DNA from: a phage
Length of the DNA stretch: 64,000 nucleotides
Strand: one strand, 5' to 3'
Sequence record: PZ445442.1
Positions 29,998-46,339 of this stretch are shown here, piece after piece; the stretch's first letter is position 1, and each line of letters begins with the position of its first letter. The notes below the pieces were generated by a model. It searched no databases. It had not been told where the DNA came from and saw nothing but the letters and a program-made list of their open reading frames with translations. Both the position numbers and the translations under genes were made by a program.

Positions 29998-30599
29998 TCT
30001 GCTCTTCCCCCTACCATAAACGGCCCTACCTGGCAAGTGGAATAATTGACGAGCCATCAATCCCACACACTGTACAAACATACATATAAAATAACTATTG
30101 CATAATTTTTCATTGTGTGGTAGCAGGGCCATTTTTACACATTTTTCCTTCCAAAATTGCACGTAATGCAGCATTTGCACAAAATTTAACCTGATGCATA
30201 TATTCAATAGCTTGTCAACAACTAAAAATCTTTATAAGTCATACACTTACATAACTACAAAAGCGTTTTCTACGTGAAAAATCGAGTATAACTATAGCCG
30301 CCAGATCTCAGAATTTACGTACGCTCGCCATTCTATAGCCTGCTAAGCATTTATTCCAACCATAGAATAACGGAATAGTCAATACCTGCATAAAATAATT
30401 ATTCGTGTAAACTGCATAACATAAATCGGCCCAGGTGTCAACATTTTTCGTAAACAGTCTGGAATTGTCACGTTAGGTTACCATAAGCAGAGAAATCTTT
30501 AGTCGTCTAATGTTTACTGTACGTTACTATATTAACTGAAATCATTAGATGACTAATAGAAAGATAAGAAATAATTAACAATACAATTATTTTATCTGT

Positions 30600-30960
30600 A
30601 ACAATAAGGCAACTATGCAAACGAATGGCATGGCGCGACGGAGTCGCGACATAATATAAAAGCAGTAACCATCACCCCCGTGATAGTTTGTCTGCAAACT
30701 ATTAATCAGATCATAGTTGCCTTGTATTTAGTTAATCATGACATAACAAGCAAGGCAACTATAGATCTTCTAATAGTTGCCCTGCTTTTATATTATGTCA
30801 TAAATTATTAACATGCAAACGAATGGCATGGCTTATAATTTTTGAGAAAATAGTCTATACGTGAACAGTAAGGCATGCAATAGTAACAATTGTTATTGTA
30901 TCCAGTGTGTTGAGTATGCCCAGTATGTCACCATTGTGTCCAGTATGTCAGACAAGTTTT
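30600..30960. repeat. cluster of inverted and direct repeats in the convergent non-coding region
   Basis: 9-bp site GGCAACTAT at about 30608 and 30754, its complement ATAGTTGCC at about 30713 and 30773; 19-bp direct repeat TGCAAACGAATGGCATGGC at about 30616 and 30814; 18-bp inverted pair GACATAATATAAAAGCAG (about 30648) / CTGCTTTTATATTATGTC (about 30782); CCAGTATGTCA x2 at about 30920-30950. Confidence 0.5.
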
Positions 30961-32399
30961 CCTCCTCTTTGTCAAGTGCTGCATGAAAAATTTACAAACT
31001 GGTATGGTAGCATTTTTGCGGCCCTGTTTACATTCAGTAATGTATGTATAATCCTTGTTGTGTGGGCGTTTAGACGTCTAGACGGTTGGAAGTCTACAGG
31101 TCAATATCTAATCTATTGGCTGCTAACTATATCCCACACAAATAGTAAGAAATATGATTGTTATATGCGTAAACTGTAACTCATGTTATCAATCCCTGTA
31201 TGTATCACCAGTGGTGCGCATAATGGGTATTATGTTAAATTGCCCGTAATGATAACTATTCTCACAATGATAGGTATTCTCATTCACCCCAACAAAATAG
31301 GTTGCAAATGTTGTGCCACTGTGTGAACGGCCTCACCTATTAATTTGCCTCACTGCCTCGATATTTGAGAATTATTATAAAAATGAGAAGTATTCCCATT
31401 CCGTCCGCCTGGCAGCACTCCAGTCGCTACGGCTCCTGACAGGGCAGCACTCCTGTAGGTCAGGTCAAAATCGGGGTAGAACTGGACCTGTTCAGATATT
31501 TCTGGCTGACTCTTCAGGTCTGTGTGGGAAAAGCCAACCTCTCCGGCGGGGCAGGGGAGGTAAATTAAAAAATTTACGTGGTGTATGAAGAGCCCTTCAG
31601 GTAAGGCATGTATTATAGGATGAAACCCTCTTCAGGCATGATATTTGTGGGTGTGATATTTGCTGGAAAGCCAGATATGACGGGACTCCCGGCGGGGCAG
31701 GGGTAGTACAGACGGGGAAATATGGGGATGTAGTTGGGGAAATTGATCAGGCAGGTGGGGTATAGGATATGTTACAAGTATGTTAAATATGGAGGTTGAA
31801 TATCTGTAGGATTTGTGTGTAAAATCAAAGACTTAAGTGGTGTTGTGGTATTTTCTATAAATAATTCAAGTTTAATAGGTAATATTTGCCTCTATCCACT
31901 TTGTGTGGTAAACAGATTCAGATGAGATTAGTTTACAAGTGTATACATAATATACAAATTAAAGATACAGGAAACCCCCCTCCCCCTTCGGCTACCATTC
32001 ACCTTTTCCTCTGACTGGTACTTAAACACTTATTCAGACTCTTCAGGTTATCACCCATATATCATATGGCAGTGACTGGTGTCCTCCGGCCCCTCTTTCG
32101 TCACCCGTCCGCTTCGCCATGCTAATGCCATAGCCAAAGGTTCGGTTGTTCACCCTGTTCACTCAGGTGTATCTCCATACCCCTTCAAACCGAAGAGAAC
32201 AGAAAACCCGAATTACTCGGTAAAAGAAAAGAGAAGAACTTAATTTTATCAGGATAGGCAAGAATGTCAAGGCATGACTGCTCACTAAACAAGCAAACAG
32301 TCATGTGTGGGAGGTAAGTGATTGTGGTGGTGGGAAATTTAGTTGAAAGATGTGTTATAGGTGCGCTTCCAGCACTTTAGCCGGGCAGCTAATTGTGTG

Positions 32400-32615
32400 T
32401 CAGTCCAGCGGTTCATCCTCTACTTCACTGAAATCAATGTTCATGGTCTCTTCCCAACCATCGATCTCAGCACAAGAGTGGAGTTCTTTAGGGTTTACTC
32501 CCAAAGCCTCAGCAACAGAGTCTATATTTAACACCTCTGGCAGGTATGATTCATCGAATTCAAGGTAAATCAGGCCACGAGTGTTGTCAGCTCCACCAAA
32601 TATTTCTATCTTCAT
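32400..32615 (-). CDS. hypothetical small acidic protein
   Basis: Track ORF; last gene of the leftward block. Confidence 0.5.
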   Translation of the reverse strand: MKIEIFGGADNTRGLIYLEFDESYLPEVLNIDSVAEALGVNPKELHSCAEIDGWEETMNIDFSEVEDEPLD

Positions 32616-32736
32616 GAAATCTCCTCTGGAAATGAGAGTGTGAACAGGGTTTTATACGTTCCAATACGCTGGAATTATGCTCGTTTTCCTCTTCAGGCCA
32701 TGCTTTAGCATGAGGAACCTGTGTGGGCTCGGTGCT

Positions 32737-33150
32737 TCATAGTCTACCACCTCTGAACTCTTCGTGCTCAGGCATAATAGAGAACCAGATATCTACGATG
32801 TCCTCCCACGTCAGGTCATTAGCCTCAGGATCTGTCTGGGGCGAAGATGAAGAATCTTCAGAATCGAAGTTTTCCTCTTTCACTGGCTCAGTCAATGGAC
32901 ATATGGTCACTCCTTCAGATGTTTCTTCAGATGCATGTGTGTTGATCATGTTCCACCCGTGAGTATTCCGGCAACAGCCGCTATGGACGTAATGATCATC
33001 AGGATCACCACTAAAACTTCGGACAATGTTCTCATTGTGTATCCCATATTCTCCAAACGATGTGTGGATACTATCACGAGAGCGGTAATGTGTCAACAGA
33101 AACGCCGCGAGGGTTTGGTTAAAATCCGAGCGTATGGTGATTTGGGTCAA
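32737..33150 (-). CDS. hypothetical protein
   Basis: Track ORF. Confidence 0.5.
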   Translation of the reverse strand: MTQITIRSDFNQTLAAFLLTHYRSRDSIHTSFGEYGIHNENIVRSFSGDPDDHYVHSGCCRNTHGWNMINTHASEETSEGVTICPLTEPVKEENFDSEDSSSSPQTDPEANDLTWEDIVDIWFSIMPEHEEFRGGRL

Positions 33151-33309
33151 AACGGACGTGCGTTCTCGCTACGCTCGAAAGAGAGATTTGTTTGTAGGAA
33201 GCTCTTAAACGCTCTGTAATTAGATTATCTGTCTAAGGTAGGCAATCGTGCACCAGATAAAGAAAAGGACGCCACAGAGCGTCCTAGGTGTCTTAAATTT
33301 GATATTTTG

Positions 33310-33621
33310 CTATACCCATGAGGGCTTATCAAGGTTGGAGTAGCTGAAAGGTGTCAAAAGGTGACTGTCAAAATCTCTCAAACTATCCAAATCTTTTTCC
33401 TCGTCCTGACACCATCTGTGCCTACACTTATTGTTGTAGTGCATAGAATGCATAGCGTTCTGCAACTTAACAGGCACAAGTGATTCAGGAGTAGATAGTA
33501 TTGTCGGGTATGCCAGAACCACCTCAAACAGTGGAAACACATCGAAACTAAAGTCTACCTCTGCAGAGGTTGATGGCATGTAAGAGTATTTAGCCGCCTT
33601 TGTAGACATAATCCACCTCAC
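33310..33621 (-). CDS. hypothetical protein
   Basis: Track ORF. Confidence 0.5.
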   Translation of the reverse strand: MRWIMSTKAAKYSYMPSTSAEVDFSFDVFPLFEVVLAYPTILSTPESLVPVKLQNAMHSMHYNNKCRHRWCQDEEKDLDSLRDFDSHLLTPFSYSNLDKPSWV

Positions 33622-33944
33622 ACAGGTTTGATAATACCTTTACCGAATAACTCTTCGTATCTAATCTTATCCGGATCCCACTCCTGGATAATTTCGAAGA
33701 CAATATCCAACCCAGGGATAATCACTTCTCCAGTGTCAAGTTTGGCAAGAACAAAACCAGAAGGCTGAATGGTTTCCCAGTTGCGACGATTGGAATAGAA
33801 GACCTCGAAAATATCACCGACCTTGATCTGTTGATCAAGATGTTCAAGATTCTCTTTCATATAGACGCAGCGTATTTTTCGTGCAGGCCATAGACCGCCT
33901 GCATCACGTTCATTCAATTCTTTTACAGTAATCGGTATACCCAT
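33618..33944 (-). CDS. hypothetical protein
   Basis: Track ORF; 4-nt overlap with downstream gene. Confidence 0.5.
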   Translation of the reverse strand: MGIPITVKELNERDAGGLWPARKIRCVYMKENLEHLDQQIKVGDIFEVFYSNRRNWETIQPSGFVLAKLDTGEVIIPGLDIVFEIIQEWDPDKIRYEELFGKGIIKPV

Positions 33945-33965
33945 CTCAAATCTCCTTCATAGATA

Positions 33966-33991
33966 GTAAAAAGAGGGGCCCAAGCCCCTCT
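33966..33991 (-). terminator. rho-independent terminator (minus strand)
   Basis: On the minus strand: GAGGGGC-TTGG-GCCCCTC stem followed by TTTTTAC. Confidence 0.5.
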
Positions 33992-33999
33992 CTTTGTCA

Positions 34000-34305
34000 T
34001 TATTCTACAGAGCGTTTGAACAGAATGTCTGCCTCAGACATGTGCTCAACCTCTTCTTCGATTTTAGCTCGACGTTTTTCAGCCTCATAGCGAATATCGA
34101 ACTCGGTAGCCACCAGGGATTTGATGAATTTAGGAGAATACAGGTGATCCTGCTTCTCTACGAGAATGATATCCTTAATGGCATCTTTCAGATCTTTAAT
34201 CTGAAGTTGGAGTTCTACCAGTTCTTCGATTGTTTTGCGAAGGCGATCACGCTCTGCAGTGTCAGAAGGAAGAGAGGTGAACAGTTCAACTTTAGATTTA
34301 GCCAT
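34000..34305 (-). CDS. hypothetical coiled-coil protein
   Basis: Track ORF; heptad-like charged sequence. Confidence 0.5.
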   Translation of the reverse strand: MAKSKVELFTSLPSDTAERDRLRKTIEELVELQLQIKDLKDAIKDIILVEKQDHLYSPKFIKSLVATEFDIRYEAEKRRAKIEEEVEHMSEADILFKRSVE

Positions 34306-34333
34306 AGTAAGAGTCTCCTTATGTTGTTTTAAA

Positions 34334-34651
34334 TTAACGTTCTACAAAAATACCGTTCAGTTCAATAACCAGGAATTTCTGGTCTTCGCTATCGTCTCGT
34401 GCCAGCACCTCACAGACGTATCGGTCATCCCCATCATCATCGCAGTCAAATACAAGACTGAGGACTTTATCATGATAAACCTTCGCCACTACCGCCTCGT
34501 AAGTATTGCCGATTGTGAATCCAAGATAATCTCCAATGCATTTGACAACAACATGATCGCCAGCATTTAAGTCAATCTTCGTCATTACTGCGCTCCTTGG
34601 GTAATAATACTGTATGTAAAACTTTAACCAGAGATGTGAATAACGCCCCAA
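34334..34651 (-). CDS. hypothetical protein
   Basis: Track ORF. Confidence 0.5.
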   Translation of the reverse strand: MGRYSHLWLKFYIQYYYPRSAVMTKIDLNAGDHVVVKCIGDYLGFTIGNTYEAVVAKVYHDKVLSLVFDCDDDGDDRYVCEVLARDDSEDQKFLVIELNGIFVER

Positions 34652-34740
34652 AACACACCGATAGCGCTAAAACAGACAAGGCCATCATTAAAGCTTCAGT
34701 AAAATCAGTCATTCCTCACCTCTTGTTAGTCACTATACTA

Positions 34741-35004
34741 TCATTTATCCTTGTCGTCAAGAACTTTTTTAAATCTTTCAGGGATATCTCCCGTTCTTAG
34801 ATAGTTCATGACCTCGCAAGGTTCCCACTTGAATTTCTTACAGAGTAGGGCGGCTGAGATTGTTTCATTGCGAAAAGAAAGGATATTAATATCCCACTCT
34901 GAGAACCCCAACTTCCGAAGGGTAGCTACAGAAATCCTTACCGCAACCCAGCAGCAAAAACATGCAACAAACGCCACTGCTACAACCCACATCAGGATGT
35001 TCAT
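34741..35004 (-). CDS. hypothetical membrane-anchored protein
   Basis: Track ORF; N-terminal hydrophobic helix MNILMWVVAVAFVACFCCWVAV. Confidence 0.45.
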   Translation of the reverse strand: MNILMWVVAVAFVACFCCWVAVRISVATLRKLGFSEWDINILSFRNETISAALLCKKFKWEPCEVMNYLRTGDIPERFKKVLDDKDK

Positions 35005-35093
35005 ATAAGCACCTTACTGAAATACAAGACACAGTGTTAAGGTTACTGACCAGCAAATAATTAACAGTGCCGTTGCAACCTTGGCAAGATTTA

Positions 35094-35381
35094 TCATAGT
35101 GCCTCTAAGATTTCATATCCTTCGGGTCGGAATACAAGCCACTCCGTGGCTCCGTTTGGTCGATACGCTTTATACAGAACAACCTGGTCTCGGCACATGC
35201 ACATGGCTACATAGTTTTCATCCACACCTGCAGCCTGCATTGCATCTTCTTCTCCGGCAACTGCTTTGCTTACAACTTCCTTGGTAGGCAAGTGTGCGAT
35301 CAGCTCGTCACCATCATTAATTCCAAAATGGCTGAGTTCGCCGTTGGTATCTTTAATCTTAATCTTAACCAGATCTTTCAT
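35094..35381 (-). CDS. hypothetical protein
   Basis: Track ORF. Confidence 0.5.
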   Translation of the reverse strand: MKDLVKIKIKDTNGELSHFGINDGDELIAHLPTKEVVSKAVAGEEDAMQAAGVDENYVAMCMCRDQVVLYKAYRPNGATEWLVFRPEGYEILEAL

Positions 35382-35710
35382 TAGTCTTCCCCCAGGTTCA
35401 AAGGTCCTAAGATTTCATATGCCAGATTAGAAGTTACAAGAGGGTCTTCTGCGTCTTTAGTATTATACCACCCGTGAATAACCAGAGTCCCACTTTGTTT
35501 CATGTCCAACTGGAACTCTTCTGCCGTTTCCTCATCCAGCTCCAAGATTTCCATAAGGTATTTGATGTTAGGGAGGTATGCAGCTGTTACAGTCCCCTCT
35601 ACCAGACCTTCAGGCCAACCTACATCTGGATGACAAGTAGGAACCAGGTTGGTCAGCTTAATGGTGTACGCTTTTTCTGCACGAGCCTTCAGTAACGGGT
35701 CAATCTTCAT
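35381..35710 (-). CDS. hypothetical protein
   Basis: Track ORF; abuts neighbours. Confidence 0.5.
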   Translation of the reverse strand: MKIDPLLKARAEKAYTIKLTNLVPTCHPDVGWPEGLVEGTVTAAYLPNIKYLMEILELDEETAEEFQLDMKQSGTLVIHGWYNTKDAEDPLVTSNLAYEILGPLNLGED

Positions 35711-36060
35711 TATTCGTCCTCCTCTTCGGTACCTGCTTCCAGTAATAAGTTAAGAATATCTTCTGCACAAGGCTCATAGAACTCTTGGCCTTCATTATCG
35801 ATGATTTTATAGTCATCTCCACGAATAATCAGGGGATCACTCTCAAAATTATCGAGACCTTTAACAACGACAACACGATCGATTGCCATCATTGTAAGAA
35901 CTTTATCGACATCTTCCTCTGCTACACCATACTGCAGCAGAATGTCTTTGGTAGGAGGAACAGCATCCACCACAACACCGTTACCAAAACCTTCCGGGAG
36001 TTTAGCTAAAATATCTTCCGGAACCACATTCACATCAAAACCAGTAATTTCTACTTTCAT
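35710..36060 (-). CDS. hypothetical acidic protein
   Basis: Track ORF. Confidence 0.5.
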   Translation of the reverse strand: MKVEITGFDVNVVPEDILAKLPEGFGNGVVVDAVPPTKDILLQYGVAEEDVDKVLTMMAIDRVVVVKGLDNFESDPLIIRGDDYKIIDNEGQEFYEPCAEDILNLLLEAGTEEEDE

Positions 36061-36321
36061 TTACAGCACCTCTTCGTCAACTACTTCATAAAAATGGCTT
36101 GGGATTGCAATAGCGTTCTCACCTTCACCCAAGAACACTGTCCCACTAACGATTAACATTAGAAGAACGTCTGCGATACCTTCCTCGGGGACGTTGCCAA
36201 AACCTTTGATCAGCTCGTAGGTTGGAATATTTACCTCTAAGATGTCACCATCTTTAGAACGGAAATCAACACCGTCCTGAATCTCTGCCGTTTCAAGGTT
36301 TTTCAATTTAATCTTCATCAA
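36061..36321 (-). CDS. hypothetical protein
   Basis: Track ORF. Confidence 0.5.
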   Translation of the reverse strand: MMKIKLKNLETAEIQDGVDFRSKDGDILEVNIPTYELIKGFGNVPEEGIADVLLMLIVSGTVFLGEGENAIAIPSHFYEVVDEEVL

Positions 36322-36397
36322 TCGGTCTCCTGTCTTGTTAAGATGAAGGTATTATTTCACACAGGGTTGGCGTTGTCAACACCTGTGTGCAAGAAAA

Positions 36398-36793
36398 TTA
36401 CTGAAACAGTGCAGATAAATTACCTTCTGGTGGGAACTTATCTGCCAAAAACGGTGTTAGCACAGTAGCCTTCTGAAGATCTGGGGTCCACTCGTTGTTC
36501 AGAACATCCCAGTAGTACGCAATATTGCTGTGTGGGTGCCGCATTACGAACTTTTTCCCTTCGTAGTCATCTGAAACCTCTACAGAAGAAATAACAACAG
36601 AATCTTCAAGGGTTTCTTCATAGAAAGATCCACCTTCAAATTTCCAACGAGATGCAAGAGCCCCTGCCTTGAACGCTGCAGATAACGGACTGTCGGCAAG
36701 AACATACATTTCTTGCACTCTGTCGCTGCGATCTTTGCTTCTTACGTTGTATACAGTATCTGAACTATACTCAACACGGTATAGGCTTACCAT
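36398..36793 (-). CDS. hypothetical protein, paralog family A
   Basis: Track ORF; shares a ..HP.S...YW.....W.TP....AT.L.. pattern with ORF 38600..38998. Confidence 0.55.
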   Translation of the reverse strand: MVSLYRVEYSSDTVYNVRSKDRSDRVQEMYVLADSPLSAAFKAGALASRWKFEGGSFYEETLEDSVVISSVEVSDDYEGKKFVMRHPHSNIAYYWDVLNNEWTPDLQKATVLTPFLADKFPPEGNLSALFQ

Positions 36794-37152
36794 TACCGCA
36801 CCTCCTCAATAACTTCCACATCTGAACCTACCACAAATGCAAAAGGGCAGGTTTCATGAAAGACATCCGGATCGCCGCCAAGCTTGCTAACAATCTCTCC
36901 ACCACTAATAAACACAAGCTCACCGATATTCATCAAATTGCTGAAATAGTACCCATAATGATTAAAGAATGCAGCAGGGTCAGGTAGACTGGTAGCCTCA
37001 AGCACTACATCGGTTAAGGTTACTTTCTTATCATAACCTCTCGCCTTTTGAGATGCAAGATCTGCAGAATCCTCAGGCGACCGGAGATGCACAGGGATTG
37101 TTTCACCAATAAAGCGTACTTTCATATTATCACCCAACAACCATAGCTTCAA
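36793..37152 (-). CDS. hypothetical protein
   Basis: Track ORF. Confidence 0.5.
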   Translation of the reverse strand: MKLWLLGDNMKVRFIGETIPVHLRSPEDSADLASQKARGYDKKVTLTDVVLEATSLPDPAAFFNHYGYYFSNLMNIGELVFISGGEIVSKLGGDPDVFHETCPFAFVVGSDVEVIEEVR

Positions 37153-37393
37153 AAGGAGTCATGAACGAATAAACGGCATCATCATCAGCTTCAGGGAATG
37201 CTCCCAAAGACTTCATGTCTGAGCCCTTGACAAATACAAGGTTTTGATCAAAAGCTTCTTGGGGATCAATCCGATACATATTACGTAGAATATCGCTTAC
37301 CTCCTCATCAAGAGGTGAGTATGCTGTGCACGTTTTTCCGATCAAGCTTTGAGAATCAGGGTATCCACCTGAAGTTTTAAAATAAACAATCAT
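37130..37393 (-). CDS. hypothetical protein
   Basis: Track ORF. Confidence 0.5.
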   Translation of the reverse strand: MIVYFKTSGGYPDSQSLIGKTCTAYSPLDEEVSDILRNMYRIDPQEAFDQNLVFVKGSDMKSLGAFPEADDDAVYSFMTPFEAMVVG

Positions 37394-37484
37394 ATAGTAT
37401 CACCTCTGGCAAGAGATTGGGATTCCTTTCCCACAAATAATTACAAACCTTCCTTATCGAGGAAGTATGCTAATCTAAGCAGGA

Positions 37485-37754
37485 TTATTCCTCTACAATC
37501 TCATACACATCAGGAGTTACAATCAACTCTTCTCCGTTACCAGGTGCAACAAACACCACCAAACCTTCAGGTGTGTGCTTTTTAGCCATCTCGATAACAT
37601 CTTCCCGCAGAGCTGGCTCCATCAGATCAAAACCTTCACCCAGGGCATCACGAACCACCTTCATATAGTCCACTGGTTGTGCTTCAACAATCATGCCTTC
37701 AACCAGACCACAATTTTTGTCTGCCAGCTCAGTTTTGAATAATTTAATTTTCAT
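37485..37754 (-). CDS. hypothetical protein
   Basis: Track ORF. Confidence 0.5.
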   Translation of the reverse strand: MKIKLFKTELADKNCGLVEGMIVEAQPVDYMKVVRDALGEGFDLMEPALREDVIEMAKKHTPEGLVVFVAPGNGEELIVTPDVYEIVEE

Positions 37755-37780
37755 TTGGAGGTCTCCTCAATTATTTGATA

Positions 37781-37882
37781 TTAATAGCCGTAACCTAACA
37801 CATTAACTACAACTGCGATTGCAAACATAATTTCAAAGCATGCAATCTCTACATTTGGGACTAATTTCTTAATCACACCCAT
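37781..37882 (-). CDS. small hydrophobic peptide (33 aa)
   Basis: Minus-strand ATG after GAGGTG SD; MGVIKKLVPNVEIACFEIMFAIAVVVNVLGYGY; below track cutoff. Confidence 0.3.
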   Translation of the reverse strand: MGVIKKLVPNVEIACFEIMFAIAVVVNVLGYGY

Positions 37883-37891
37883 TGTAGCACC

Positions 37892-38209
37892 TCATTCTCC
37901 AAAGTCAATCTTTACTTTGCCTTTCCCCTTACCTTTCTTTCCACCGCATTTAGCCAGCTGACGTGCTGCAACATCTACCATACGGTCAGTTGCCTCGTAA
38001 GCATCACTGCCTTTAGCCTTGGCAATAACTTCTTTTCCAGAATTGTCAAAAATGAACGCCATAACTTCCTGGTGATCATTTTCAACTTTTACACTCACAC
38101 GTGCATAGTTGGCAGAGGGGTGCAAACGCTCCAGCTTAGACATTTTGTGGGAAATGAAAGACACCATACCTTCAGTGATTTCTACGTTGCCAGTGATTTC
38201 AATTTGCAT
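37892..38209 (-). CDS. hpf: ribosome hibernation promoting factor (HPF/RaiA/YfiA family) homolog
   Basis: MQIEITGNVEITEGM...KLERL...VSVKVE...AKAKGSDAYEATDRMVDVAARQLAK aligns by eye along its length with E. coli HPF/YfiA (MQLNITGNNVEITEALREFV..KLEQ...VVLKVE...AEGQDMYAAIDGLIDKLARQLTK); Lys/Gly-rich tail is extra. Confidence 0.75.
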   Translation of the reverse strand: MQIEITGNVEITEGMVSFISHKMSKLERLHPSANYARVSVKVENDHQEVMAFIFDNSGKEVIAKAKGSDAYEATDRMVDVAARQLAKCGGKKGKGKGKVKIDFGE

Positions 38210-38291
38210 AACGTGTTCCTTTTAAAGAAGAGGGAACCAAACCCTCTTTGAAAACAATGATACTAAATCTGAAGCGTTGTGTCAACAGTTT

Positions 38292-38582
38292 TTACAGCTT
38301 GTTGTCGATAGTTCTTAAAATATCTACAGCAAGATCTGCCATTTTTCGAACATACTCTGCAAACTCAACAGGATCCTTGATCGAAGAATTCACAGGGTCG
38401 TACCCTAGAGCGTTCAAAATGGCTGCAGCATCTACAACCTTCTCATCATTTGCGAAGATCTCTCCGTCAAACTTGTAGGTCCATTTTGAGTCAACCTTAG
38501 CAGAGCAGGGTTTGTCCATGCTTGTTACACCATCGTCTTTAAACTCTCCTGCGTTATCAATATTTAGAATTAAATCCATCAT
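38292..38582 (-). CDS. hypothetical protein
   Basis: Track ORF. Confidence 0.5.
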   Translation of the reverse strand: MMDLILNIDNAGEFKDDGVTSMDKPCSAKVDSKWTYKFDGEIFANDEKVVDAAAILNALGYDPVNSSIKDPVEFAEYVRKMADLAVDILRTIDNKL

Positions 38583-38599
38583 AGTGACACCTCACTGTT

Positions 38600-38998
38600 T
38601 CAGTTTAGCTTTTCTTCAACAACCCCATAGCTCGGGGCAGAGTCAAGAGCTTTTTGGTTTAAAAGTGGTGTAGCAGAATCTGCAAACGGTGTCCAAGTTT
38701 TTGTTCTGGCATTCCAGTAATGCTTCACTCTGGAATCTGGATGCACTATAACAAAAACTTTTTCACTTGTCAACACATTAATTTCTTCTACACCCTTGCT
38801 GATAATTTCTCCGTCATAGCCTCCAGTCTGGTATCCTTCGTACCAGGTTCTTGCATAGGCATAGCCAGCCTGCCAGCATGCAGCCTCCTCCGAGGTGGAG
38901 ACTACGTAGAAGTCTTTCTCAAATTCCGGAATACGCCCTTGCTTTACGCTCCAAGCTCCGCGAATTTTCATTGTAACTTTGAATAGTTTATTTTTCAC
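38600..38998 (-). CDS. hypothetical protein, paralog family A
   Basis: Track ORF; paralog of 36398..36793. Confidence 0.55.
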   Translation of the reverse strand: MKNKLFKVTMKIRGAWSVKQGRIPEFEKDFYVVSTSEEAACWQAGYAYARTWYEGYQTGGYDGEIISKGVEEINVLTSEKVFVIVHPDSRVKHYWNARTKTWTPFADSATPLLNQKALDSAPSYGVVEEKLN

Positions 38999-39010
38999 AA
39001 CGGTTACCCA

Positions 39011-39295
39011 TCACAGCTCTACAATATCTGCATCTGACCCTGCCCCAAAGGCATAATAGGACTCTTCCCCGAAATAATATTCCGGTGCACCAGCAGCGAT
39101 CAGGTCTGATCCCAAAATAAACACCACGTTGTGGCCTACATAGCTGTGATGTTGCCGCACAGGATCATCCCACGGCAACCCTTCAAAGTATACCGCAGGA
39201 ACGACCTTTCCTTTCAGGAAGGATTGCCCCAAGTAGACGTTAGAATCAAGAATTTTAACCTTCATGATCGTCCTCCACGATCTCCACATCCTCAC
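39011..39295 (-). CDS. hypothetical protein, paralog family B
   Basis: Track ORF; MKVK(I/V/F)LD...GKV......DLIAAGA core shared with 39255..39482 and 43009..43242. Confidence 0.5.
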   Translation of the reverse strand: MRMWRSWRTIMKVKILDSNVYLGQSFLKGKVVPAVYFEGLPWDDPVRQHHSYVGHNVVFILGSDLIAAGAPEYYFGEESYYAFGAGSDADIVEL

Positions 39296-39482
39296 CTAGG
39301 GCAAAGTTGTAGGTCCACTGACTGTCAAAGCAGTCCTGAGATGCACCAGCGGCAATAAGATCTGCCCCTTTTATTTTTAAAAGGTCAGGGTAATCTTCGT
39401 TAGGTACAGCAGTAAACACTTTCCCTACTAAAGGCTCCTGACCAATATAGAAGCTTGAATCTAAAACTTTAACTTTCATCAA
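39255..39482 (-). CDS. hypothetical protein, paralog family B
   Basis: Track ORF; see family B motif. Confidence 0.5.
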   Translation of the reverse strand: MMKVKVLDSSFYIGQEPLVGKVFTAVPNEDYPDLLKIKGADLIAAGASQDCFDSQWTYNFALGEDVEIVEDDHEG

Positions 39483-39766
39483 CGGTCTCCATCAGGTGGT
39501 TGTGGGACGTAAACACTGTTACGAATATCGTCCGCAGTATAGTAATAAGTGTCTCCAACCCTATCTCTGGCTGCAATGTACTCTGCTATACCAATAAGTG
39601 CCATTGATTTGGTGGCGTATCTTCCCAACTCGTTAGCTCCCCAGTAGAATTTAGACCAGTAGGGAATAAGACCGAACAAATATACCTTTTGACGAACTTC
39701 CCAGTAAGTGCCTTTTCCGACAAGTTTAAACTCGACTTCACTACTGTTAATCTTTTTCATTATCAA
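39479..39766 (-). CDS. hypothetical protein
   Basis: Track ORF. Confidence 0.5.
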   Translation of the reverse strand: MIMKKINSSEVEFKLVGKGTYWEVRQKVYLFGLIPYWSKFYWGANELGRYATKSMALIGIAEYIAARDRVGDTYYYTADDIRNSVYVPQPPDGDR

Positions 39767-40059
39767 TCTCCCTCTACCGTGGTCGGATTGTCAGTAAGAA
39801 ATTGAGCATTGGCTGGAGGCACGCCTGACATTTTCCACACAACCATAAGTTTGTAACCCGGCACCCTGTTAAGTGCAGATCGAGTAGAGTTTGTGCACGT
39901 ATACTTTCGCTTTCCAAACCCGTTCTCCATCATAATCCAGTACCCAGTATCTTTGTCACCAGGTATCGGTAGACCACCTTCATCAACCCACTGAATGGAC
40001 CACGGCACGATGGCTACAGCTTTATATTTAAACTTTTTAAACCACTCAAAAAGTTTCAT
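39763..40059 (-). CDS. hypothetical protein
   Basis: Track ORF; the tandem repeat lies immediately upstream. Confidence 0.5.
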   Translation of the reverse strand: MKLFEWFKKFKYKAVAIVPWSIQWVDEGGLPIPGDKDTGYWIMMENGFGKRKYTCTNSTRSALNRVPGYKLMVVWKMSGVPPANAQFLTDNPTTVEGD

Positions 40060-40063
40060 AATT

Positions 40064-40255
40064 CAGCCTCGCATAGACATAATCACTATAAACAGGCAAA
40101 CAATGAATCCGAATGCCACGCCACCCATAAACGTTAATATTGATGCAATCATAGTCAATCAGCCTCGCATAGACATAATCACTATAAACAGGCAAACAAT
40201 GAATCCGAATGCCACGCCACCCATAAACGTTAATATTGATGCAATCATAGTCAAT
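40064..40255. repeat. perfect tandem direct repeat, 2 x 96 bp (plus 9-bp start of a third unit)
   Basis: Unit CAGCCTCGCATAGACATAATCACTATAAACAGGCAAACAATGAATCCGAATGCCACGCCACCCATAAACGTTAATATTGATGCAATCATAGTCAAT appears twice back-to-back; intergenic on the minus strand. Confidence 0.8.
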
Positions 40256-40436
40256 CAGCCTCGCTTGGCAACTCTTCTACCTTAACATGCCGAAAAGTGT
40301 TACCGTAATGGTTGATCCATGACATCAGCTCGCTTTCTTGCTCTTCCTCTGGGATGAACTCTCGAATGCTGACAAGTTTTAAGAAAACCCAATCACAATC
40401 TGCACCCATTCTACCAGACAGGCAATAGTGCTTCAT
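40251..40436 (-). CDS. hypothetical protein
   Basis: Track ORF. Confidence 0.45.
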   Translation of the reverse strand: MKHYCLSGRMGADCDWVFLKLVSIREFIPEEEQESELMSWINHYGNTFRHVKVEELPSEAD

Positions 40437-40454
40437 AAAACCCTCCCGCCTGGT

Positions 40455-40649
40455 TTAGAATATTGCTTCTTCCATTGCGCCTGAGAGCAACAAAGAGGTG
40501 ATCTGGCTAACATTCATCTCAGACTCTACTTCCTCCCCTTTGAAAGGTTCGCGGCAGAATAGGACTGTTTCAGGACTTTTACTTCGAACAATATAATACA
40601 AATCATTCAATGTGTTGTAGTAATAAGTGTTAAAATGTAAGTTTTTCAT
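40455..40649 (-). CDS. hypothetical protein
   Basis: Track ORF. Confidence 0.45.
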   Translation of the reverse strand: MKNLHFNTYYYNTLNDLYYIVRSKSPETVLFCREPFKGEEVESEMNVSQITSLLLSGAMEEAIF

Positions 40650-40933
40650 TTTCTAGTCCTCTTCTTAGATTTTTGTGCAGAAACGCTTTCTGCAATACGA
40701 GACAGGCGTTCTTCTGAAGCTTTACCTATCCCAGGTTTCTTGAGCGGGTTATCTTTATGACCGCAATCCAATTGGATATTGGATACCTCCCCAACCTTGT
40801 AAGTCAATTCTAGCAAAAGGTTGTCGTCCTTGTCAAATGTTCTTACGATAAATTTTTTATCGTTCTCCTGAACTTCATATCTGGTACCTGCAGTATACAA
40901 CATGGTACCATCAGCATAGGATATCCAGATCAT
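40646..40933 (-). CDS. hypothetical protein
   Basis: Track ORF. Confidence 0.5.
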   Translation of the reverse strand: MIWISYADGTMLYTAGTRYEVQENDKKFIVRTFDKDDNLLLELTYKVGEVSNIQLDCGHKDNPLKKPGIGKASEERLSRIAESVSAQKSKKRTRK

Positions 40934-41277
40934 TGAGCCTCCTTCTGCTGCAACAGCATTAACTCTTTGTTAGAGATCTTTACTGCTGTTTTTATTGTTC
41001 CATCTTTACGGAACCACGACCAGAACTCTACAGTGTCCCCACTATCAAGCAAAGCATACCCGTGGTAGAAGTCTTTGTCCTTAGACAGTTTCTCATCTAT
41101 GTCTGCATCGACACATTCATGATCCATAGCATTTTGCCTGAATGCATCGGTTATGCCAATGCACGCCTTGCTCTCAAGACTGGTATATCCGATATCTTTT
41201 AATTCAGTTTCCCAAGTCCAGTACCCTATAAAAGCTAAAACAGCTACCCACAGTAATAACGTTTTAATCTTTGGCAT
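40930..41277 (-). CDS. hypothetical secreted or membrane-anchored protein
   Basis: Track ORF; N-terminal MPKIKTLLLWVAVLAFIGYWTW hydrophobic segment. Confidence 0.5.
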   Translation of the reverse strand: MPKIKTLLLWVAVLAFIGYWTWETELKDIGYTSLESKACIGITDAFRQNAMDHECVDADIDEKLSKDKDFYHGYALLDSGDTVEFWSWFRKDGTIKTAVKISNKELMLLQQKEAQ

Positions 41278-41339
41278 TCTCTCTACCTCTTTCTTAGTTT
41301 ATTTCACTATGGCACATCCTTTGTGCCATATCTCAACTA

Positions 41340-41810
41340 CTACTTAAATAGTAGTTCAAAATAGTGCAAAATTAACAGAAGTTGAACTACACCTAGTGCA
41401 ACGGCAAGTATGTTAATCTTAGAATCGAAAAACTTCTTAACTTTTACTCTAAAAGGTTCCTTAATGTCCTTTACGATCCTATCTATAGATGACCTCATAT
41501 CTCTGATTACCATCCTGAACATTAAAGACGGATGCTCCCCCATCTCTGTAACGGAATCGAAAACATACTCTCTTCGGTCATAAGGGCCGCCAGCTCTGCG
41601 TATTAACCTCTCCACAGAGACCTCGAACGTCACACCTGTAACGTAATCATCTATAACAAGTCGTGACGGGTCTTTACCTTTACTATCAAGAGGTATCAAA
41701 GTTATCTTTCCAGATTTTGTTAAAATTTCCCCTTTTTCAAGCAAGGTGTACCAATGCTCTCTGCCAAGACTGTTGAGGCACGTTTTTACATATTTAACAA
41801 ACATCGTCAC
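41340..41810 (-). CDS. hypothetical protein
   Basis: Track ORF; C-terminal hydrophobic helix. Confidence 0.5.
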   Translation of the reverse strand: MTMFVKYVKTCLNSLGREHWYTLLEKGEILTKSGKITLIPLDSKGKDPSRLVIDDYVTGVTFEVSVERLIRRAGGPYDRREYVFDSVTEMGEHPSLMFRMVIRDMRSSIDRIVKDIKEPFRVKVKKFFDSKINILAVALGVVQLLLILHYFELLFK

Positions 41811-42010
41811 CCCTCATCGCACGTCTGATATAACCACTCTATAAAATCTTGATACCATTCTCCCTCTGAGCGCTCCGTAGGCCAATAATCTTCACCCTCT
41901 CGTGCATTAAAATCTGAGTATTCAACTTTCCACTCCTTTACCAGCTCGTGGAGAAGGTTTTCAGCCTGCTCTAAAGATTTATTTTTTACCATTGCTGTCT
42001 CCTTTTTCAA
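41807..42010 (-). CDS. hypothetical protein
   Basis: Track ORF; start uncertain. Confidence 0.45.
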   Translation of the reverse strand: MKKETAMVKNKSLEQAENLLHELVKEWKVEYSDFNAREGEDYWPTERSEGEWYQDFIEWLYQTCDEG

Positions 42011-42211
42011 GATAGTTATACATCAGAACTGCACCACCTAAGATGGCTACCAGTAACAATACCCCAGATAGCATCTCAATAAACATGGCTTGAAACACTG
42101 GAAGGCCTCCCTAAATTAACGCACCATTTTAAATACATGCTCTTTTCCCATAAAGGTGCCTGGCTAAGATCTGCGTAGAACGCAATCTCTTTAAGAACAG
42201 TATAAACAGTT

Positions 42212-42448
42212 TTAGGTGCGGTCTCCATCCCTACCCTCCTTTTTCTCCTTACGGATATTCTTGTAGTAATCAACCAGGCACATTATCACGATGAAGATAA
42301 CAACAGGCCAAAAAGGTGCAGCAGTGATGATGGTGATAAAATCATCAAACTTCACCCTTCGTCTGGACACGATGCATACACCTGTCAAGAATACCGCTGT
42401 TATAACGGACATTACCAGGTAACCTATTAGCACAACATTTATACTCAT
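42212..42448 (-). CDS. hypothetical membrane protein
   Basis: Track ORF; two hydrophobic helices. Confidence 0.45.
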   Translation of the reverse strand: MSINVVLIGYLVMSVITAVFLTGVCIVSRRRVKFDDFITIITAAPFWPVVIFIVIMCLVDYYKNIRKEKKEGRDGDRT

Positions 42449-42478
42449 TGGTCCTCCCTTTGTAGGTTAAATTGTATA

Positions 42479-43012
42479 CTACGGATGGTTGCTGATGGTG
42501 TTAAGAAAATTATCCCGTTCTTTCTCAGAGTTTTCACGAGTGTAGCTGAAAAACATGTCTAGAATAACCTTATTGATATATTCCAGCTCCTCTGTGTTCA
42601 GGTACTTAGCAGGATCTGCAATGACATCCCAAGTCTCATACAGACCGCACTCATGATACCCCCAACGCTGCTCAATTGTCAAGCTGAGTGGCAAATCTTT
42701 ACCGTCACAAACAACCTTCCATCTACAAATGCTGGTATCTGGGCGTATCTGTGCACGGTATATCTGTACAAAATCCAATTTGAATTTGAGGTACTCGTCA
42801 TACAATTTAAGCACAAAGCTCTCGATTTGTGGAGACACTTTTGCAGCAAACTGTGCGTATTTGTACTTGCACTGGATGATCTTTCTGCGTTTTGCAGTTA
42901 AATTTTTTGCCGCCAGTTGTTCTTCAGTGTATCTCCACCTACGATCAACAAACGCAACAGGGTCTTTGTCCCCATAGAGGTCTTCCCAGTTAATCAGAAG
43001 CATACCTGTCAC
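42479..43012 (-). CDS. hypothetical protein
   Basis: Track ORF. Confidence 0.5.
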   Translation of the reverse strand: MTGMLLINWEDLYGDKDPVAFVDRRWRYTEEQLAAKNLTAKRRKIIQCKYKYAQFAAKVSPQIESFVLKLYDEYLKFKLDFVQIYRAQIRPDTSICRWKVVCDGKDLPLSLTIEQRWGYHECGLYETWDVIADPAKYLNTEELEYINKVILDMFFSYTRENSEKERDNFLNTISNHP

Positions 43013-43242
43013 TCCTCCACAACTTCAAGGCCTTTACCGCCTCGCTCTGGCAGATTACTTAAAGATAGGTAATACATATAATCAGGAGAGATCCTGCCAG
43101 ACTCTGCACCTGCAGCTAGTAAATCCTTCCCTTTAACCAGGACAACATTCTCGTTTGCAGATAGCCGTTTTGCTTCCACAATTTTACCAACACAGTCAAC
43201 CAAGGAAGGGTACCCTAAATCTGTAAGAAATTTAACTTTCAT
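43009..43242 (-). CDS. hypothetical protein, paralog family B
   Basis: Track ORF; MKVKFLTD...VGKIVEA...GKDLLAAGAE. Confidence 0.5.
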   Translation of the reverse strand: MKVKFLTDLGYPSLVDCVGKIVEAKRLSANENVVLVKGKDLLAAGAESGRISPDYMYYLSLSNLPERGGKGLEVVEE

Positions 43243-43281
43243 GCTACCTCCTGCTTCTACCGTCCCTGGTAAGATAAATTA

Positions 43282-43680
43282 TTACTGAACAGAGCGCGGG
43301 GCTGGGAAGGATAACTCTTCTAAAGAGAAGATTTCATTTCCTACCACCCAAGTTGCTGGATCATCTGGGTTGACGGGATAGATAATCATCACCTCGTCAG
43401 TGTTACATACCCGCTTTTTACCTGTGGAGTCATCAGCAACCAGCATGCGCGGTTCTTCAGAAATGCACAGGTAGCCTCCTCGGCCCACTGTTCCTTCCAC
43501 AGGGTCTTGCCCTTTGATCACGATGATTATCTTCTCTCCTGAGGCGATATTACCTTGCACACTCACCGTTTGACCAACCTTGGATGTGCCAATCTTAGTG
43601 ACTTCGAACATTACATCCCGAATTACTGTTGCATAATCGCCAGACACTTTCTTACCTTCTTTAGTGATCTCAATCTTCAT
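43282..43680 (-). CDS. hypothetical protein
   Basis: Track ORF. Confidence 0.5.
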   Translation of the reverse strand: MKIEITKEGKKVSGDYATVIRDVMFEVTKIGTSKVGQTVSVQGNIASGEKIIIVIKGQDPVEGTVGRGGYLCISEEPRMLVADDSTGKKRVCNTDEVMIIYPVNPDDPATWVVGNEIFSLEELSFPAPRSVQ

Positions 43681-43943
43681 ACACTGGGCTCCTTAAATGA
43701 ATCTATGTAATCAATTAAATCCCAAGCATCGCGATGGGCTGTCAGAGGGTATACTTCCCCAAGAGGGATCATGGCAATAAGTCTATCAAAAACCCAATCT
43801 GGACGCAACATTTTATGGTGATATTCCCACTCACCTTCTACAGATTTTTTCTGAGTAATCAGGATCTCTGTGTAGTGTTTCGCCTGTCTTGAGTAAATTG
43901 AGAATGACTTGTACATAAATGACCCCCTTGTTGAGAACAACAA
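43677..43943 (-). CDS. hypothetical protein
   Basis: Track ORF. Confidence 0.5.
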   Translation of the reverse strand: MLFSTRGSFMYKSFSIYSRQAKHYTEILITQKKSVEGEWEYHHKMLRPDWVFDRLIAMIPLGEVYPLTAHRDAWDLIDYIDSFKEPSV

Positions 43944-43950
43944 TACACAA

Positions 43951-44265
43951 CTACCAGGTTACTGTCAAGTAGGCAACCGTGTTATTTTTCTCTGGAGAGA
44001 TGCCGACAACATCTACCTGCAAACCTCCTGCCCTTAAATCTCCAACAATGTGCGGGAAGTAATCTGAGAGATGCGACGGTAGATTTATCGAAAATCCGCA
44101 TCCCAGAAAGCCTGCTAACGCTTTATTTTGTATCTCCCCTACAATCGCATCATAAATGGAGTTAAGCTCGTCAGGGAGCGTTACAGGACGTTTTAGCGCT
44201 AACTGGTGTAATTTGTCCTTAGCACTCATTTTCATTTCAGGTCTACCTCTGGGGGTGCCAACCAC
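43951..44265 (-). CDS. hypothetical protein
   Basis: Track ORF. Confidence 0.5.
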   Translation of the reverse strand: MVGTPRGRPEMKMSAKDKLHQLALKRPVTLPDELNSIYDAIVGEIQNKALAGFLGCGFSINLPSHLSDYFPHIVGDLRAGGLQVDVVGISPEKNNTVAYLTVTW

Positions 44266-44765
44266 ATAAATGGCGGCAAGTCTAAACGGTTTTTCTTATC
44301 CCACACAAAATATGCATATGCTTGCCCGTCAGTTCTACCATTTGATTGAAATGATGGACGCTTAGATATTGTGATCACAGTAGTAGGTGCATTATCAAGC
44401 CACCATTCAAATCTGGCTTTGCTTTCCAGAAAATTAAGACGCAAAAGCATAATAACTACGTCAGCATCTTTCAACGCCTTGTCTACGAACTCACGGGCCA
44501 GACTGTATGGTGGGTTGGTGATAATACAGTCAACATGGTTGTATTCTGTATTCAGATAGTCAACACCTTCTTGGATTTCTCCCCATGCAGATCCTAACGG
44601 CATACGGGAGTAGAACACACCTGAGGCACTATTCCTGCAAGGCTCTAAGTAGGTCCAGTCTTCTGGGAACGGAATAAGGTCATACAGCCCTTCTGCACAC
44701 CACTCCGGTGTCACATACTCATCGTAGGCGTTACGTTGTTCATCAGGTTTTCTAGCACAAGTCAT
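44232..44765 (-). CDS. DNA N6-adenine methyltransferase (small NPPY-type)
   Basis: Catalytic motif IV IITNPPY; compact 177-aa protein. Confidence 0.65.
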   Translation of the reverse strand: MTCARKPDEQRNAYDEYVTPEWCAEGLYDLIPFPEDWTYLEPCRNSASGVFYSRMPLGSAWGEIQEGVDYLNTEYNHVDCIITNPPYSLAREFVDKALKDADVVIMLLRLNFLESKARFEWWLDNAPTTVITISKRPSFQSNGRTDGQAYAYFVWDKKNRLDLPPFMWLAPPEVDLK

Positions 44766-44783
44766 GCAAATCTCCAGATCATA

Positions 44784-44805
44784 AAAGCCCTCCGAAGAGG
44801 GCTTT
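44784..44805 (-). terminator. terminator-like hairpin downstream of ClpP-like gene
   Basis: AAAGCCCTC-CGAA-GAGGGCTTT palindrome with flanking A/T runs. Confidence 0.45.
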
Positions 44806-44816
44806 AGAATTAATGT

Positions 44817-45866
44817 TTAAGCTTCTTCGACAATTCCTGCACCCAGGATTTTTTCATTGAGCTCTTTTGCTGTTTTAATAATATTGTCCACCAGGCGCTT
44901 GCGAGTCTTATCTTTCACCTTAACCTCTTCACCGCCGTTCAGAGTAGTCTTCAATTGAGACAGAATATCCTGAAGTTCAACGACAGAGAATCTCTGCAGA
45001 TCTTCTGAAGTAATCTCACCCAGGGCAATTCTGATGGTCTCGCCACTTTCCATCTGCAGATTCAGGAACACAGTGTGAACATCACCTTTCGAACCACCCG
45101 CTTTTGCAGATTCAACAGCATGAACTAACTCATCTAAAGATGTGCACTGGTGAATCTCCGGGAGACCTGCTTCACCTAACACGCCTTCTTCATCACCTTT
45201 TGCCAGAAGCTTTTTCGGTTTTTGTCCGTTCTGGATGCGTTGTATGTTGCCTTCATCCAGAATAATAGCTCCAGTGCGTGCTGCCAGCTCTTCTCCGTCC
45301 AACCACACTTCGCCACCAGCTGTGATGGATGCGATCTCATCTTCTGTCAGCACCCCACCGTAGTATTTTTCAATCAGGCGTTCAAAACGTTTTTTCCAGT
45401 AGCTGACCTGAGTATTCATGTTCACACCGTTACCATAAGTGCCACCTTGATAGTAGTGGAACATAAACTCTGTGTCCGGAGCCACAGTGCGTTCTTTGCA
45501 ACCCAGCCATAAGATTGTTCCCGCAGAGCAGCACATTCCTTCAGCATGTGCAACAACGCTTGCCTGAGACTCGCGGAATGCCTGCAGATAAGCCATCGCA
45601 ATGTGCACGCAACCACCAGGGCTGTTAATGATCACTCGAATGCTTTCTTCAGGCTGAGCCATACGGATCGTCTGCAGGCGAGACATATGATCCTGCAGGT
45701 CTTCCAAATCGTCGATATAAAGAACGTGGTCAACAACAGGTGTTGGGTAGCTGTATGTTTCCATGATACCGCCCGGCATACCAAACATTTTATTACTCAT
45801 AGGTTCGAAACCGTTCTGTTTCTCTTTCATGCCGTGTACCATGGTGCTGCGAGGTGTTAAATTCAT
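44817..45866 (-). CDS. ClpP-family (S14) serine protease-like protein with long C-terminal extension
   Basis: VIINSPGG, GMCCSAGT and MFHYYQGG match ClpP signature blocks (INSPGG, GQAASMG, MIHQPLGG); about 150 extra charged C-terminal residues. Confidence 0.65.
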   Translation of the reverse strand: MNLTPRSTMVHGMKEKQNGFEPMSNKMFGMPGGIMETYSYPTPVVDHVLYIDDLEDLQDHMSRLQTIRMAQPEESIRVIINSPGGCVHIAMAYLQAFRESQASVVAHAEGMCCSAGTILWLGCKERTVAPDTEFMFHYYQGGTYGNGVNMNTQVSYWKKRFERLIEKYYGGVLTEDEIASITAGGEVWLDGEELAARTGAIILDEGNIQRIQNGQKPKKLLAKGDEEGVLGEAGLPEIHQCTSLDELVHAVESAKAGGSKGDVHTVFLNLQMESGETIRIALGEITSEDLQRFSVVELQDILSQLKTTLNGGEEVKVKDKTRKRLVDNIIKTAKELNEKILGAGIVEEA

Positions 45867-45926
45867 GAGAAATCCTTAATATTGGAAGTTGAAAGCTATT
45901 TATTTAAACCTGATTCACATTTACCT

Positions 45927-46238: not shown

Positions 46239-46267
46239 ACTGTCCTTCTCTCTGTTTTGTCCGATAA

Positions 46268-46296: not shown

Positions 46297-46339
46297 AACT
46301 GTTTTAGATATTTAAGGGTGGAATAACCACCCTTCTGTA

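Follow-up and report, generated by a model that had tools for sequence, protein, structure and literature searches.

The 105-residue protein encoded on the minus strand at 37892-38209 of the phage DNA analysed here (the window, 64,000 nucleotides) is a member of the S30AE (HPF/RaiA) superfamily, HPF-like rather than RaiA-like and an equivalog of neither, and its core is under strong purifying selection, that is, selection for function. Among sequenced phages, it is the genus Vequintavirus that is marked by this gene. The window matches Escherichia phage EmilHeitz (Bas49; MZ501062.1), a Vequintavirus of the BASEL collection, at 100% identity; there the gene is bas49_0155 (QXV78057.1) with the existing GenBank annotation 'ribosome hibernation factor'. 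Its product is identical in 105/105 residues to rV5 gp144 (ABI79209), which has been annotated as 'sigma 54 modulation factor' from the deposition of the rV5 genome on, the gene itself having been annotated since 2006. The rV5-group HPFs were included among the virus-encoded ribosomal proteins of Mizuno et al. 2019 (Nat Commun 10:752, PMC6375957), and hpf was also described as an auxiliary gene of rV5-like phages by Mathieu et al. 2020 (PMC6969025). Because the gene was thus already annotated and published in 2019, a phage HPF homolog is not a new finding, and the EmilHeitz gene is a rediscovery of published rV5 gp144 in another isolate. Full-text literature searches revealed no functional follow-up of the rV5-type HPF beyond PMC6375957 and PMC6969025, and the use of a hibernation factor to a lytic phage was raised as a question in print in 2019. 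New here are the dN/dS values, the GC match, the sigma-70 promoter, the pattern of contact residues, and a 64%-identical lineage with an unrelated basic tail.

The coding sequence comprises 105 codons plus stop in the ORF list, with the start ATG at 38209 and the stop at 37892-37894, in agreement with the open reading frame named in the earlier note on this DNA and placing it on the minus strand. The product (105 aa) is MQIEITGNVEITEGMVSFISHKMSKLERLHPSANYARVSVKVENDHQEVMAFIFDNSGKEVIAKAKGSDAYEATDRMVDVAARQLAKCGGKKGKGKGKVKIDFGE. It divides into a core and a tail as follows.

37892..38209, minus strand: complete coding sequence of the HPF homolog (ORF list, GenBank annotation, Pfam and NCBIfam matches above cutoffs).
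37946..38209, minus strand: S30AE core, residues 1-88 (AlphaFold2 model, Foldseek, dN/dS).
37895..37945, minus strand: C-terminal tail, residues 89-105, GGKKGKGKGKVKIDFGE (pLDDT, charge, alleles).

Family membership was supported by profile searches as well as by pairwise alignment. The Pfam family PF02482 (Ribosomal_S30AE) matched residues 3-88 with E=1.8e-12 and 48.3 bits against a gathering score of 23.7, and TIGR00741 (HPF/YfiA family) of NCBIfam reached 45.9 bits against a cutoff of 40.9. The equivalog model for short HPF of the E. coli type (NF007780) was still the top NCBIfam model with 55.8 bits, far under its cutoff of 125, and the RaiA/YfiA equivalog (NF007654) missed its cutoff of 158 with 17.6 bits. 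HMMER aligned the protein colinearly over residues 1-89 with E. coli HPF structures in the PDB (2rql, 4v8h, 6h4n; E of about 5e-12). In BLASTP, for which residues 1-89 of the E. coli HPF query had been checked against the PDB alignment, the two proteins were 43% identical and colinear over residues 1-87, compared with 25% identity to E. coli RaiA. The motifs that the earlier note had aligned by eye, MQ(I/L)xITGN.VEITE, KLE, V.(V/L)KVE and D.Y.A.D..(V/I)D..ARQL.K, were all recovered when HMMER and BLASTP aligned the protein with E. coli HPF, and the note's proposal of an HPF/RaiA family homolog is fully supported by the significant S30AE match, the PF02482 and TIGR00741 thresholds passed, and the modelled HPF fold. 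The likeness to E. coli HPF/YfiA that it had claimed held for HPF, while that to YfiA/RaiA proved much weaker in both sequence identity and equivalog score.

Structure prediction pointed in the same direction. An AlphaFold2 model built from a 4-sequence alignment, with a confidence that was still high enough (mean pLDDT of 83 for the whole protein and about 90 over the core), comprises the elements E2-7, H13-29, E33-43, E46-55, E60-67 and H70-89. In a Foldseek search of the PDB, 34/34 significant matches were HPF, RaiA or pY proteins, with V. cholerae HPF (4hei, rmsd 1.1 Å over 90 residues) as the best match and E. coli HPF in the 100S ribosome (6h4n_x) superposing with 1.2 Å over 89 residues. 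The model hence has the HPF topology at an rmsd of 1.1-1.2 Å, and the superposition on HPF that had been proposed earlier as a check came out in favour of the family assignment. The protein is not of the long-HPF type, in which a linker leads into a dimerisation domain of ~60 aa at the C-terminus: no second Pfam domain was found in its 105 residues, and the chain past residue 89 is predicted to be disordered. Nor does it match the build of E. coli short HPF (~95 aa, with a short basic helical C-terminus comprising K89, K91, K93 and H95), as it has 105 aa and its helix ends at G89-G90.

To quantify selection, residues 1-88 of the EmilHeitz protein were compared with seven other Vequintavirus alleles by the Nei-Gojobori method, which gave dN/dS values of 0.04-0.13. 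The EmilHeitz and phage Aya cores differ by a dS of 0.63 and a dN of 0.024, the rV5 allele shows zero nonsynonymous differences from EmilHeitz, and in the comparison with a more divergent lineage (P0004) synonymous sites were saturated at a dN of 0.26. With a GC content of 43.1% (GC3 39.6%), the gene equals both the window (43.0%) and its neighbours. A GC content equal to that of the phage and an identity to host HPF of only 43% argue for an early acquisition and a long residence of the gene in the phage. The recent transfer from a host that was suggested in 2019 (PMC6375957) is rejected on the grounds of 43% identity to E. coli HPF, 45% to the best match outside these phages, and phage-like GC.

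The distribution of the gene follows that of the genus. Using tblastn, matches of 94-100% identity to the protein were obtained from 119 phage records that are essentially rV5-like throughout, and the homolog was present in 119/121 of the records sharing the surrounding 4 kb. When E. coli HPF served as the query, ~118 of 130 matching phage records were these same rV5-like phages. A HMMER search of 1.84 billion representative proteins identified one closer relative (P0004), 64-65% identical, which is carried on contigs of up to ~137 kb with a similar small-gene block and gene neighbourhood; the nucleotide identity of this lineage to Vequintaviruses is 73-80% over one third of an 8-kb stretch. 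The nearest match outside these phages was 45% identical and a typical gammaproteobacterial HPF sequence. A word-indexed protein search returned 5 close relatives only, and a scan of IMG/VR only 2 further loci of this lineage. The second match of the HMMER search, a protein of 1160 aa (P0006, E=2.9e-9), was rejected as a false positive arising from weak matches summed over ~8 near-identical tandem repeats of ~110 aa.

Several observations on the records themselves were made along the way. An rV5-like lineage with a 64%-identical HPF homolog was found in L002, L003 and L004 (Logan ERR6997038, ERR4623478 and SRR25571739) and appears to be absent from the GenBank phage collection searched, and a protein of the P0004 lineage is filed under 'Escherichia coli' by one source. 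Eighteen 'Campylobacter phage' records (MG0656xx; host Campylobacter jejuni) are ~97% identical to E. coli rV5-like phages in this region; all are unannotated, some are fragmentary, and the host label looks doubtful.

Upstream of the gene, three elements were located on the coding strand.

38257..38285, minus strand: putative sigma-70-type promoter, TTGACA-17 nt-TATCAT (consensus scan, 11/12 positions).
38228..38248, minus strand: hairpin AAGAGGG-TTTGGTT-CCCTCTT in the 5' UTR between promoter and Shine-Dalgarno sequence (significance doubtful).
38216..38221, minus strand: Shine-Dalgarno-like AAGGAA, 6 nt upstream of the ATG (read from sequence).

The promoter-like site coincides with the 'Sigma70-type promoter; P144' annotated at the homologous position of rV5. 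Both hexamers were identical in 9/9 Vequintavirus alleles compared, and at the corresponding position the divergent lineage L002 still has TTGACA as -35 hexamer. The record of phage Murica annotates a ribosome_binding_site at the same place as AAGGAA. Between 30 and 48 kb of the window, 15/16 promoter-like sites matching at least 10/12 positions lie on the minus (coding) strand, a bias that fits many independent promoters for host RNA polymerase driving the small-gene block; in total, 60 promoter-like sites were counted in 30000..48000 compared with 38 ± 6.8 in shuffles. Because the gene is part of this block and has its own near-consensus sigma-70 promoter, we infer that it is probably transcribed by host RNA polymerase from the start of infection. 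The hairpin has a 7-bp stem and a minimum free energy of -9.9 kcal/mol; most Vequintavirus alleles preserve the stem, which is weaker in the Murica/nomo/V18 group and lacking in L002. As its energy is ordinary (z-score of -0.49 against shuffles) and it is missing from the divergent lineage, it was rejected as a conserved regulatory element. Among terminator-like sites, a strong GC-rich hairpin with 8-9 pairs and a T-rich tail (AGAGGGGCC-CAAG-CCCCTCT, 33970..33995) came out best over the 18 kb scanned; it was scored on the plus strand, opposite to the coding (minus) strand of the block.

Among ten neighbouring proteins considered as functional partners there were 0 Pfam matches, and six had only function-unknown PHROGs; across the 64-kb window, ARAGORN detected no tRNA or tmRNA genes and no Rfam family reached its gathering score. 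Directly downstream, a hydrophobic ORF of 33 aa (MGVIKKLVPNVEIACFEIMFAIAVVVNVLGYGY; 37781..37882, minus strand) starts 9 nt past the HPF stop, with a GAGGTG Shine-Dalgarno sequence that overlaps this stop; it probably shares a transcript with the HPF homolog and is translationally coupled to it. The ORF forms a PHROG of its own (15151) and appears as a gene in the records of rV5, nomo, V18 and JES2013, while in L002 gene calling leaves the interval between the HPF gene and the next one, a gene of 89 aa, empty. A promoter-like TTGACT-16-TACAAT is present at 37908..37881; since its -10 hexamer ends on the first base of the ATG of the 33-aa ORF, this site would serve the next gene and not the 33-aa ORF itself.

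The 89-aa gene (37485..37754, minus strand) was considered as a second S30AE gene and rejected, as it lacks Pfam matches and does not resemble the HPF homolog. In nomo, APCEc02, ECP32 and other records it is labelled 'sigma 54 modulation factor', which, given the lack of both a Pfam match and HPF similarity, is an annotation slip and was probably propagated off by one from APCEc02. Records of O177 and bov phages, in turn, give the name 'ATP-dependent protease La type I' to the HPF gene.

We then asked how much of the ribosome-contacting surface is retained. The key contacts in HPF- and YfiA-bound Gram-negative ribosomes are given in a 2025 preprint (10.1101/2025.10.07.680626): Lys26 and Gln29 touch phosphates near m3U1498, Thr53 and residue 62 contact m2G966, His55 and Glu60 the C-terminus of uS9, and Lys80, Arg83, Lys87, Lys89 and Lys91 the 16S rRNA, with Lys80, Arg83, Lys87 and Lys91 as the basic contacts common to HPF and YfiA. 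These positions were mapped on a 23-sequence alignment, in which 21 sequences are bacterial relatives. K22 and K25 (E. coli K23 and K26), E60, R83, K87 and K91 are kept in the phage protein, so that five of the six basic positions K23, K26, K80, R83, K87 and K91 are retained. E. coli Q29 corresponds to R28, arginine being the commonest state in the family, and H55 is replaced by phenylalanine, as in 4/21 bacterial relatives. In contrast, K80, which is lysine in 17/21 bacterial relatives, is valine in the phage protein and threonine in P0004, T53 is replaced by phenylalanine and K89 by glycine. Strand 4 of the phage lineage carries extra lysines (AKAKG compared with ASAEG in E. coli). The replacements of T53, K80 and K89 depart from the family norm and would weigh against a canonical reading. 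Overall, the contact surface seems largely, not wholly, canonical, which fits ribosome binding with an altered, perhaps weaker, affinity.

The Lys/Gly-rich tail described in the earlier note is indeed present (residues 89-100, GGKKGKGKGKVK); residues 89-105 have a computed net charge of +4. Past K87, the helix ends at G89-G90, and the remainder (KKGKGKGKVKIDFGE) is predicted to be disordered, with AlphaFold2 pLDDT values below 50 at residues 90-95 and 97-105. A Gly-rich tail was found in 0/21 aligned bacterial relatives. The divergent 64% lineage has a tail (SKSKGIDKRTAKWDY) that is unrelated in sequence and still basic, and in Murica (99 aa) and APCEc02 (101 aa) a frameshift in the purine run AAGGGGAAAGG leads to loss of the last residues with the KKGKG run kept. 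Judging from these alleles, the conserved feature is a flexible basic extension and not a specific tail sequence. The Murica and APCEc02 differences are single-base indels, homologous to window positions 37905-37930, and could be slippage variants or homopolymer sequencing errors; the sequence of the APCEc02 allele recurs in a cluster of three proteins (P0003) that stems from a separate Logan assembly (16-kb contig).

The identical protein has been examined experimentally once. Mizuno et al. expressed rV5 HPF (gp144) from pBAD24 in E. coli and detected its peptides in crude extract, including the C-terminal peptide VKIDFGE by mass spectrometry, so that the full-length protein was made (PMC6375957). 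In purified 70S or 100S ribosomes no rV5 HPF peptides were detected by mass spectrometry, and expression of the protein by itself in late-exponential E. coli caused no discernible change in 100S (PMC6375957). The ribosomes came from cells at an OD600 of 1 and had been pelleted through 500 mM NH4Cl, and the authors, who themselves regarded the assay as weak, considered that the growth phase was unsuitable, that salt had dissociated the protein, or that binding had truly been lost (PMC6375957). Absence from salt-washed ribosomes is weak evidence against ribosome binding, yet it is negative. The 2019 assay lends no support to the inferences of host shut-off, ribosome protection or translation bias that the earlier note had drawn from the homology.

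Few phage genes have the ribosome as their direct target, and the present one is fixed throughout a genus of coliphages that are abundant, infect a broad range of hosts and serve in typing and therapy. Fixation in the genus together with strong purifying selection means that the gene must do something useful, and hibernation factors might be used by a phage to preserve, release or reprogramme host ribosomes. We consider it probable that the protein acts at the canonical ribosomal site in some way. As to the benefit for the phage, we tentatively put the parking and shielding of idle host ribosomes first, as a possibility that falls somewhat short of an even chance. The protein would then be a functional, diverged S30AE protein of the short-HPF type, acquired long ago by the rV5-like lineage, whose core would dock in the 30S head-body channel of vacant host ribosomes via K22, K25 and R28 of helix 1 and R83, K87 and K91 of helix 2, overlapping the positions of A- and P-site tRNA and mRNA as cellular HPF does. 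The flexible Lys/Gly tail would add non-specific contacts to 16S rRNA phosphates, could thereby make up for the contacts lost with K80 and K89, and might extend toward uS7 and the RMF region like the tail of RaiA. Binding would probably be reversible and salt-labile, and would not lead to 100S dimers without host RMF. Idle ribosomes, e.g. those freed by decay of host mRNA, might in this manner be parked, shielded and kept intact for re-use on phage mRNA. On the other side, an early ribosome-silencing factor looks counter-productive for a phage that depends on ribosomes.

The contact pattern and the 2019 experiment also bear on a different account, in which the S30AE fold has taken on a new job and binds another RNA or a host protein, e.g. 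as a decoy or inhibitor, rather than the decoding site. The protein was expressed and yet absent from purified ribosomes (PMC6375957), K80V, T53F and K89G affect well-conserved contacts, and the DMYAAID motif has become DAYEATD. In addition, the protein has its own function-unknown PHROGs family (12469) and scores below the HPF equivalog cutoff, and the best PDB match below the HPF, RaiA and pY proteins is the T7 dGTPase inhibitor Gp1.2, a weak and remote resemblance (E=1e-3, TM 0.45) suggesting that phages may reuse broadly similar small alpha/beta folds. However, the most diagnostic contacts, R83 (which touches m4Cm1402), K87 and K22/K25, are conserved in both phage lineages under strong purifying selection, a basic disordered tail suits RNA binding, and the negative binding assay used 500 mM NH4Cl (PMC6375957). 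We regard a role away from the decoding site as rather improbable, if worth keeping in view.

A release of ribosomes from hibernation, proposed by Mizuno et al. (PMC6375957), would make use of the same site to the opposite end. The phage protein would compete with host HPF and RaiA for the 30S site, its longer tail would exclude RMF, and 100S ribosomes in slow-growing or stressed hosts would be prevented or dissolved; weak binding would allow easy displacement by initiation factors and phage mRNA, leaving the ribosomes available. In line with this, 100S formation was not promoted and the protein was lost from ribosomes in high salt (PMC6375957), a lower affinity would agree with the replacement of K80, K89 and T53, and the tail extends 16-17 residues past the end of the core (88-89) compared with ~6 in E. 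coli HPF, recalling the longer RaiA tail that runs toward the RMF site (10.1101/2025.10.07.680626). Occupancy of the decoding channel itself blocks translation, however, so that swapping host for phage HPF would not obviously free ribosomes. Moreover, the RaiA tail is acidic at its end and the phage tail basic, the 64% lineage has a different tail sequence and two isolates can do without the last residues, and Vequintaviruses are not known to meet or replicate in hosts rich in 100S. On balance, we consider this explanation unlikely.

A more specific version of ribosome parking would make the protein a distinct subtype of hibernation factor: a salt-labile, RaiA-like 'parking' factor whose tail runs along 16S rRNA to the uS7/anti-SD/RMF region, excludes RMF and 100S formation, and shields vacant 70S and 30S particles from nucleases or ribosome-targeting defences. 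If true, the phage would replace the slow-to-reverse hibernation of its host with its own rapidly reversible version, an idea that we hold to be distinctly unlikely in this full form.

Shut-off of the host, or a bias toward phage messages, both of them ideas of the earlier note, would follow if an early, abundant protein blocked 30S or 70S initiation generally or for host mRNAs. A strong promoter of constitutive type would be suited to this, and both HPF and RaiA overlap tRNA and mRNA binding sites (10.1101/2025.10.07.680626). HPF-type factors, however, bind vacant ribosomes only, and no known mechanism separates host from phage mRNA. Furthermore, in the 2019 experiments the inducer was present from the overnight pre-culture to an OD600 of 1 and ribosome profiles were normal (PMC6375957); growth to this density under continuous induction with normal profiles argues against strong toxicity or global shut-off, and we rate this explanation as very doubtful. 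That the gene is an inert passenger, a captured host gene in decay without use to the phage, might be read from the lack of a known phenotype and the frameshifted tails of two isolates, but is effectively refuted by the selection analysis (dN/dS of 0.04-0.13 at a dS of up to 0.63), by conservation in 119 genomes and a 64%-identical sister lineage, and by a composition that has fully converged on that of the phage together with a conserved promoter and Shine-Dalgarno sequence of its own.

Compared with known systems, the closest counterpart is rV5 gp144, which is the same protein in the same gene neighbourhood under the same promoter P144, without any difference. Phage-encoded bS21 and bL12 are, like rV5 HPF, auxiliary genes of the translation apparatus; both were incorporated into E. 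coli ribosomes, whereas rV5 HPF was not detected there (PMC6375957). The S30AE proteins of jumbo phages (Cronobacter phage GAP32, Escherichia phage PBECO4 and Xanthomonas phage XaC1; PHROG 8990) are likewise phage-encoded and have the same fold, but are only 17-24% identical to the Vequintavirus HPF in structural alignments and form a separate PHROG. As they are distant, have their own PHROG, and the GAP32 protein was placed elsewhere in the HPF tree by Mizuno et al. (PMC6375957), an independent acquisition is probable.

E. coli RaiA (YfiA, protein Y) belongs to the same superfamily, has the same fold, and shares with the phage protein a C-terminal extension that exceeds the one of HPF in length. 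The RaiA extension points toward the RMF site and is associated with 70S rather than 100S hibernation (10.1101/2025.10.07.680626). The two tails differ in charge, with a net -4 for RaiA and +4 for the phage protein. The phage gene lies in a phage small-gene block, unlike bacterial hpf, which sits in the rpoN operon. E. coli-type short HPF converts RMF-induced 90S dimers into 100S. This protein (YhbH) has the same fold as the phage protein, with an rmsd of 1.2-1.6 Å, and K23, K26, E60, R83, K87 and K91 are common to both, whereas the short basic helical end of E. coli HPF gives way in the phage protein to a helix break at G89-G90 followed by a disordered Lys/Gly tail.
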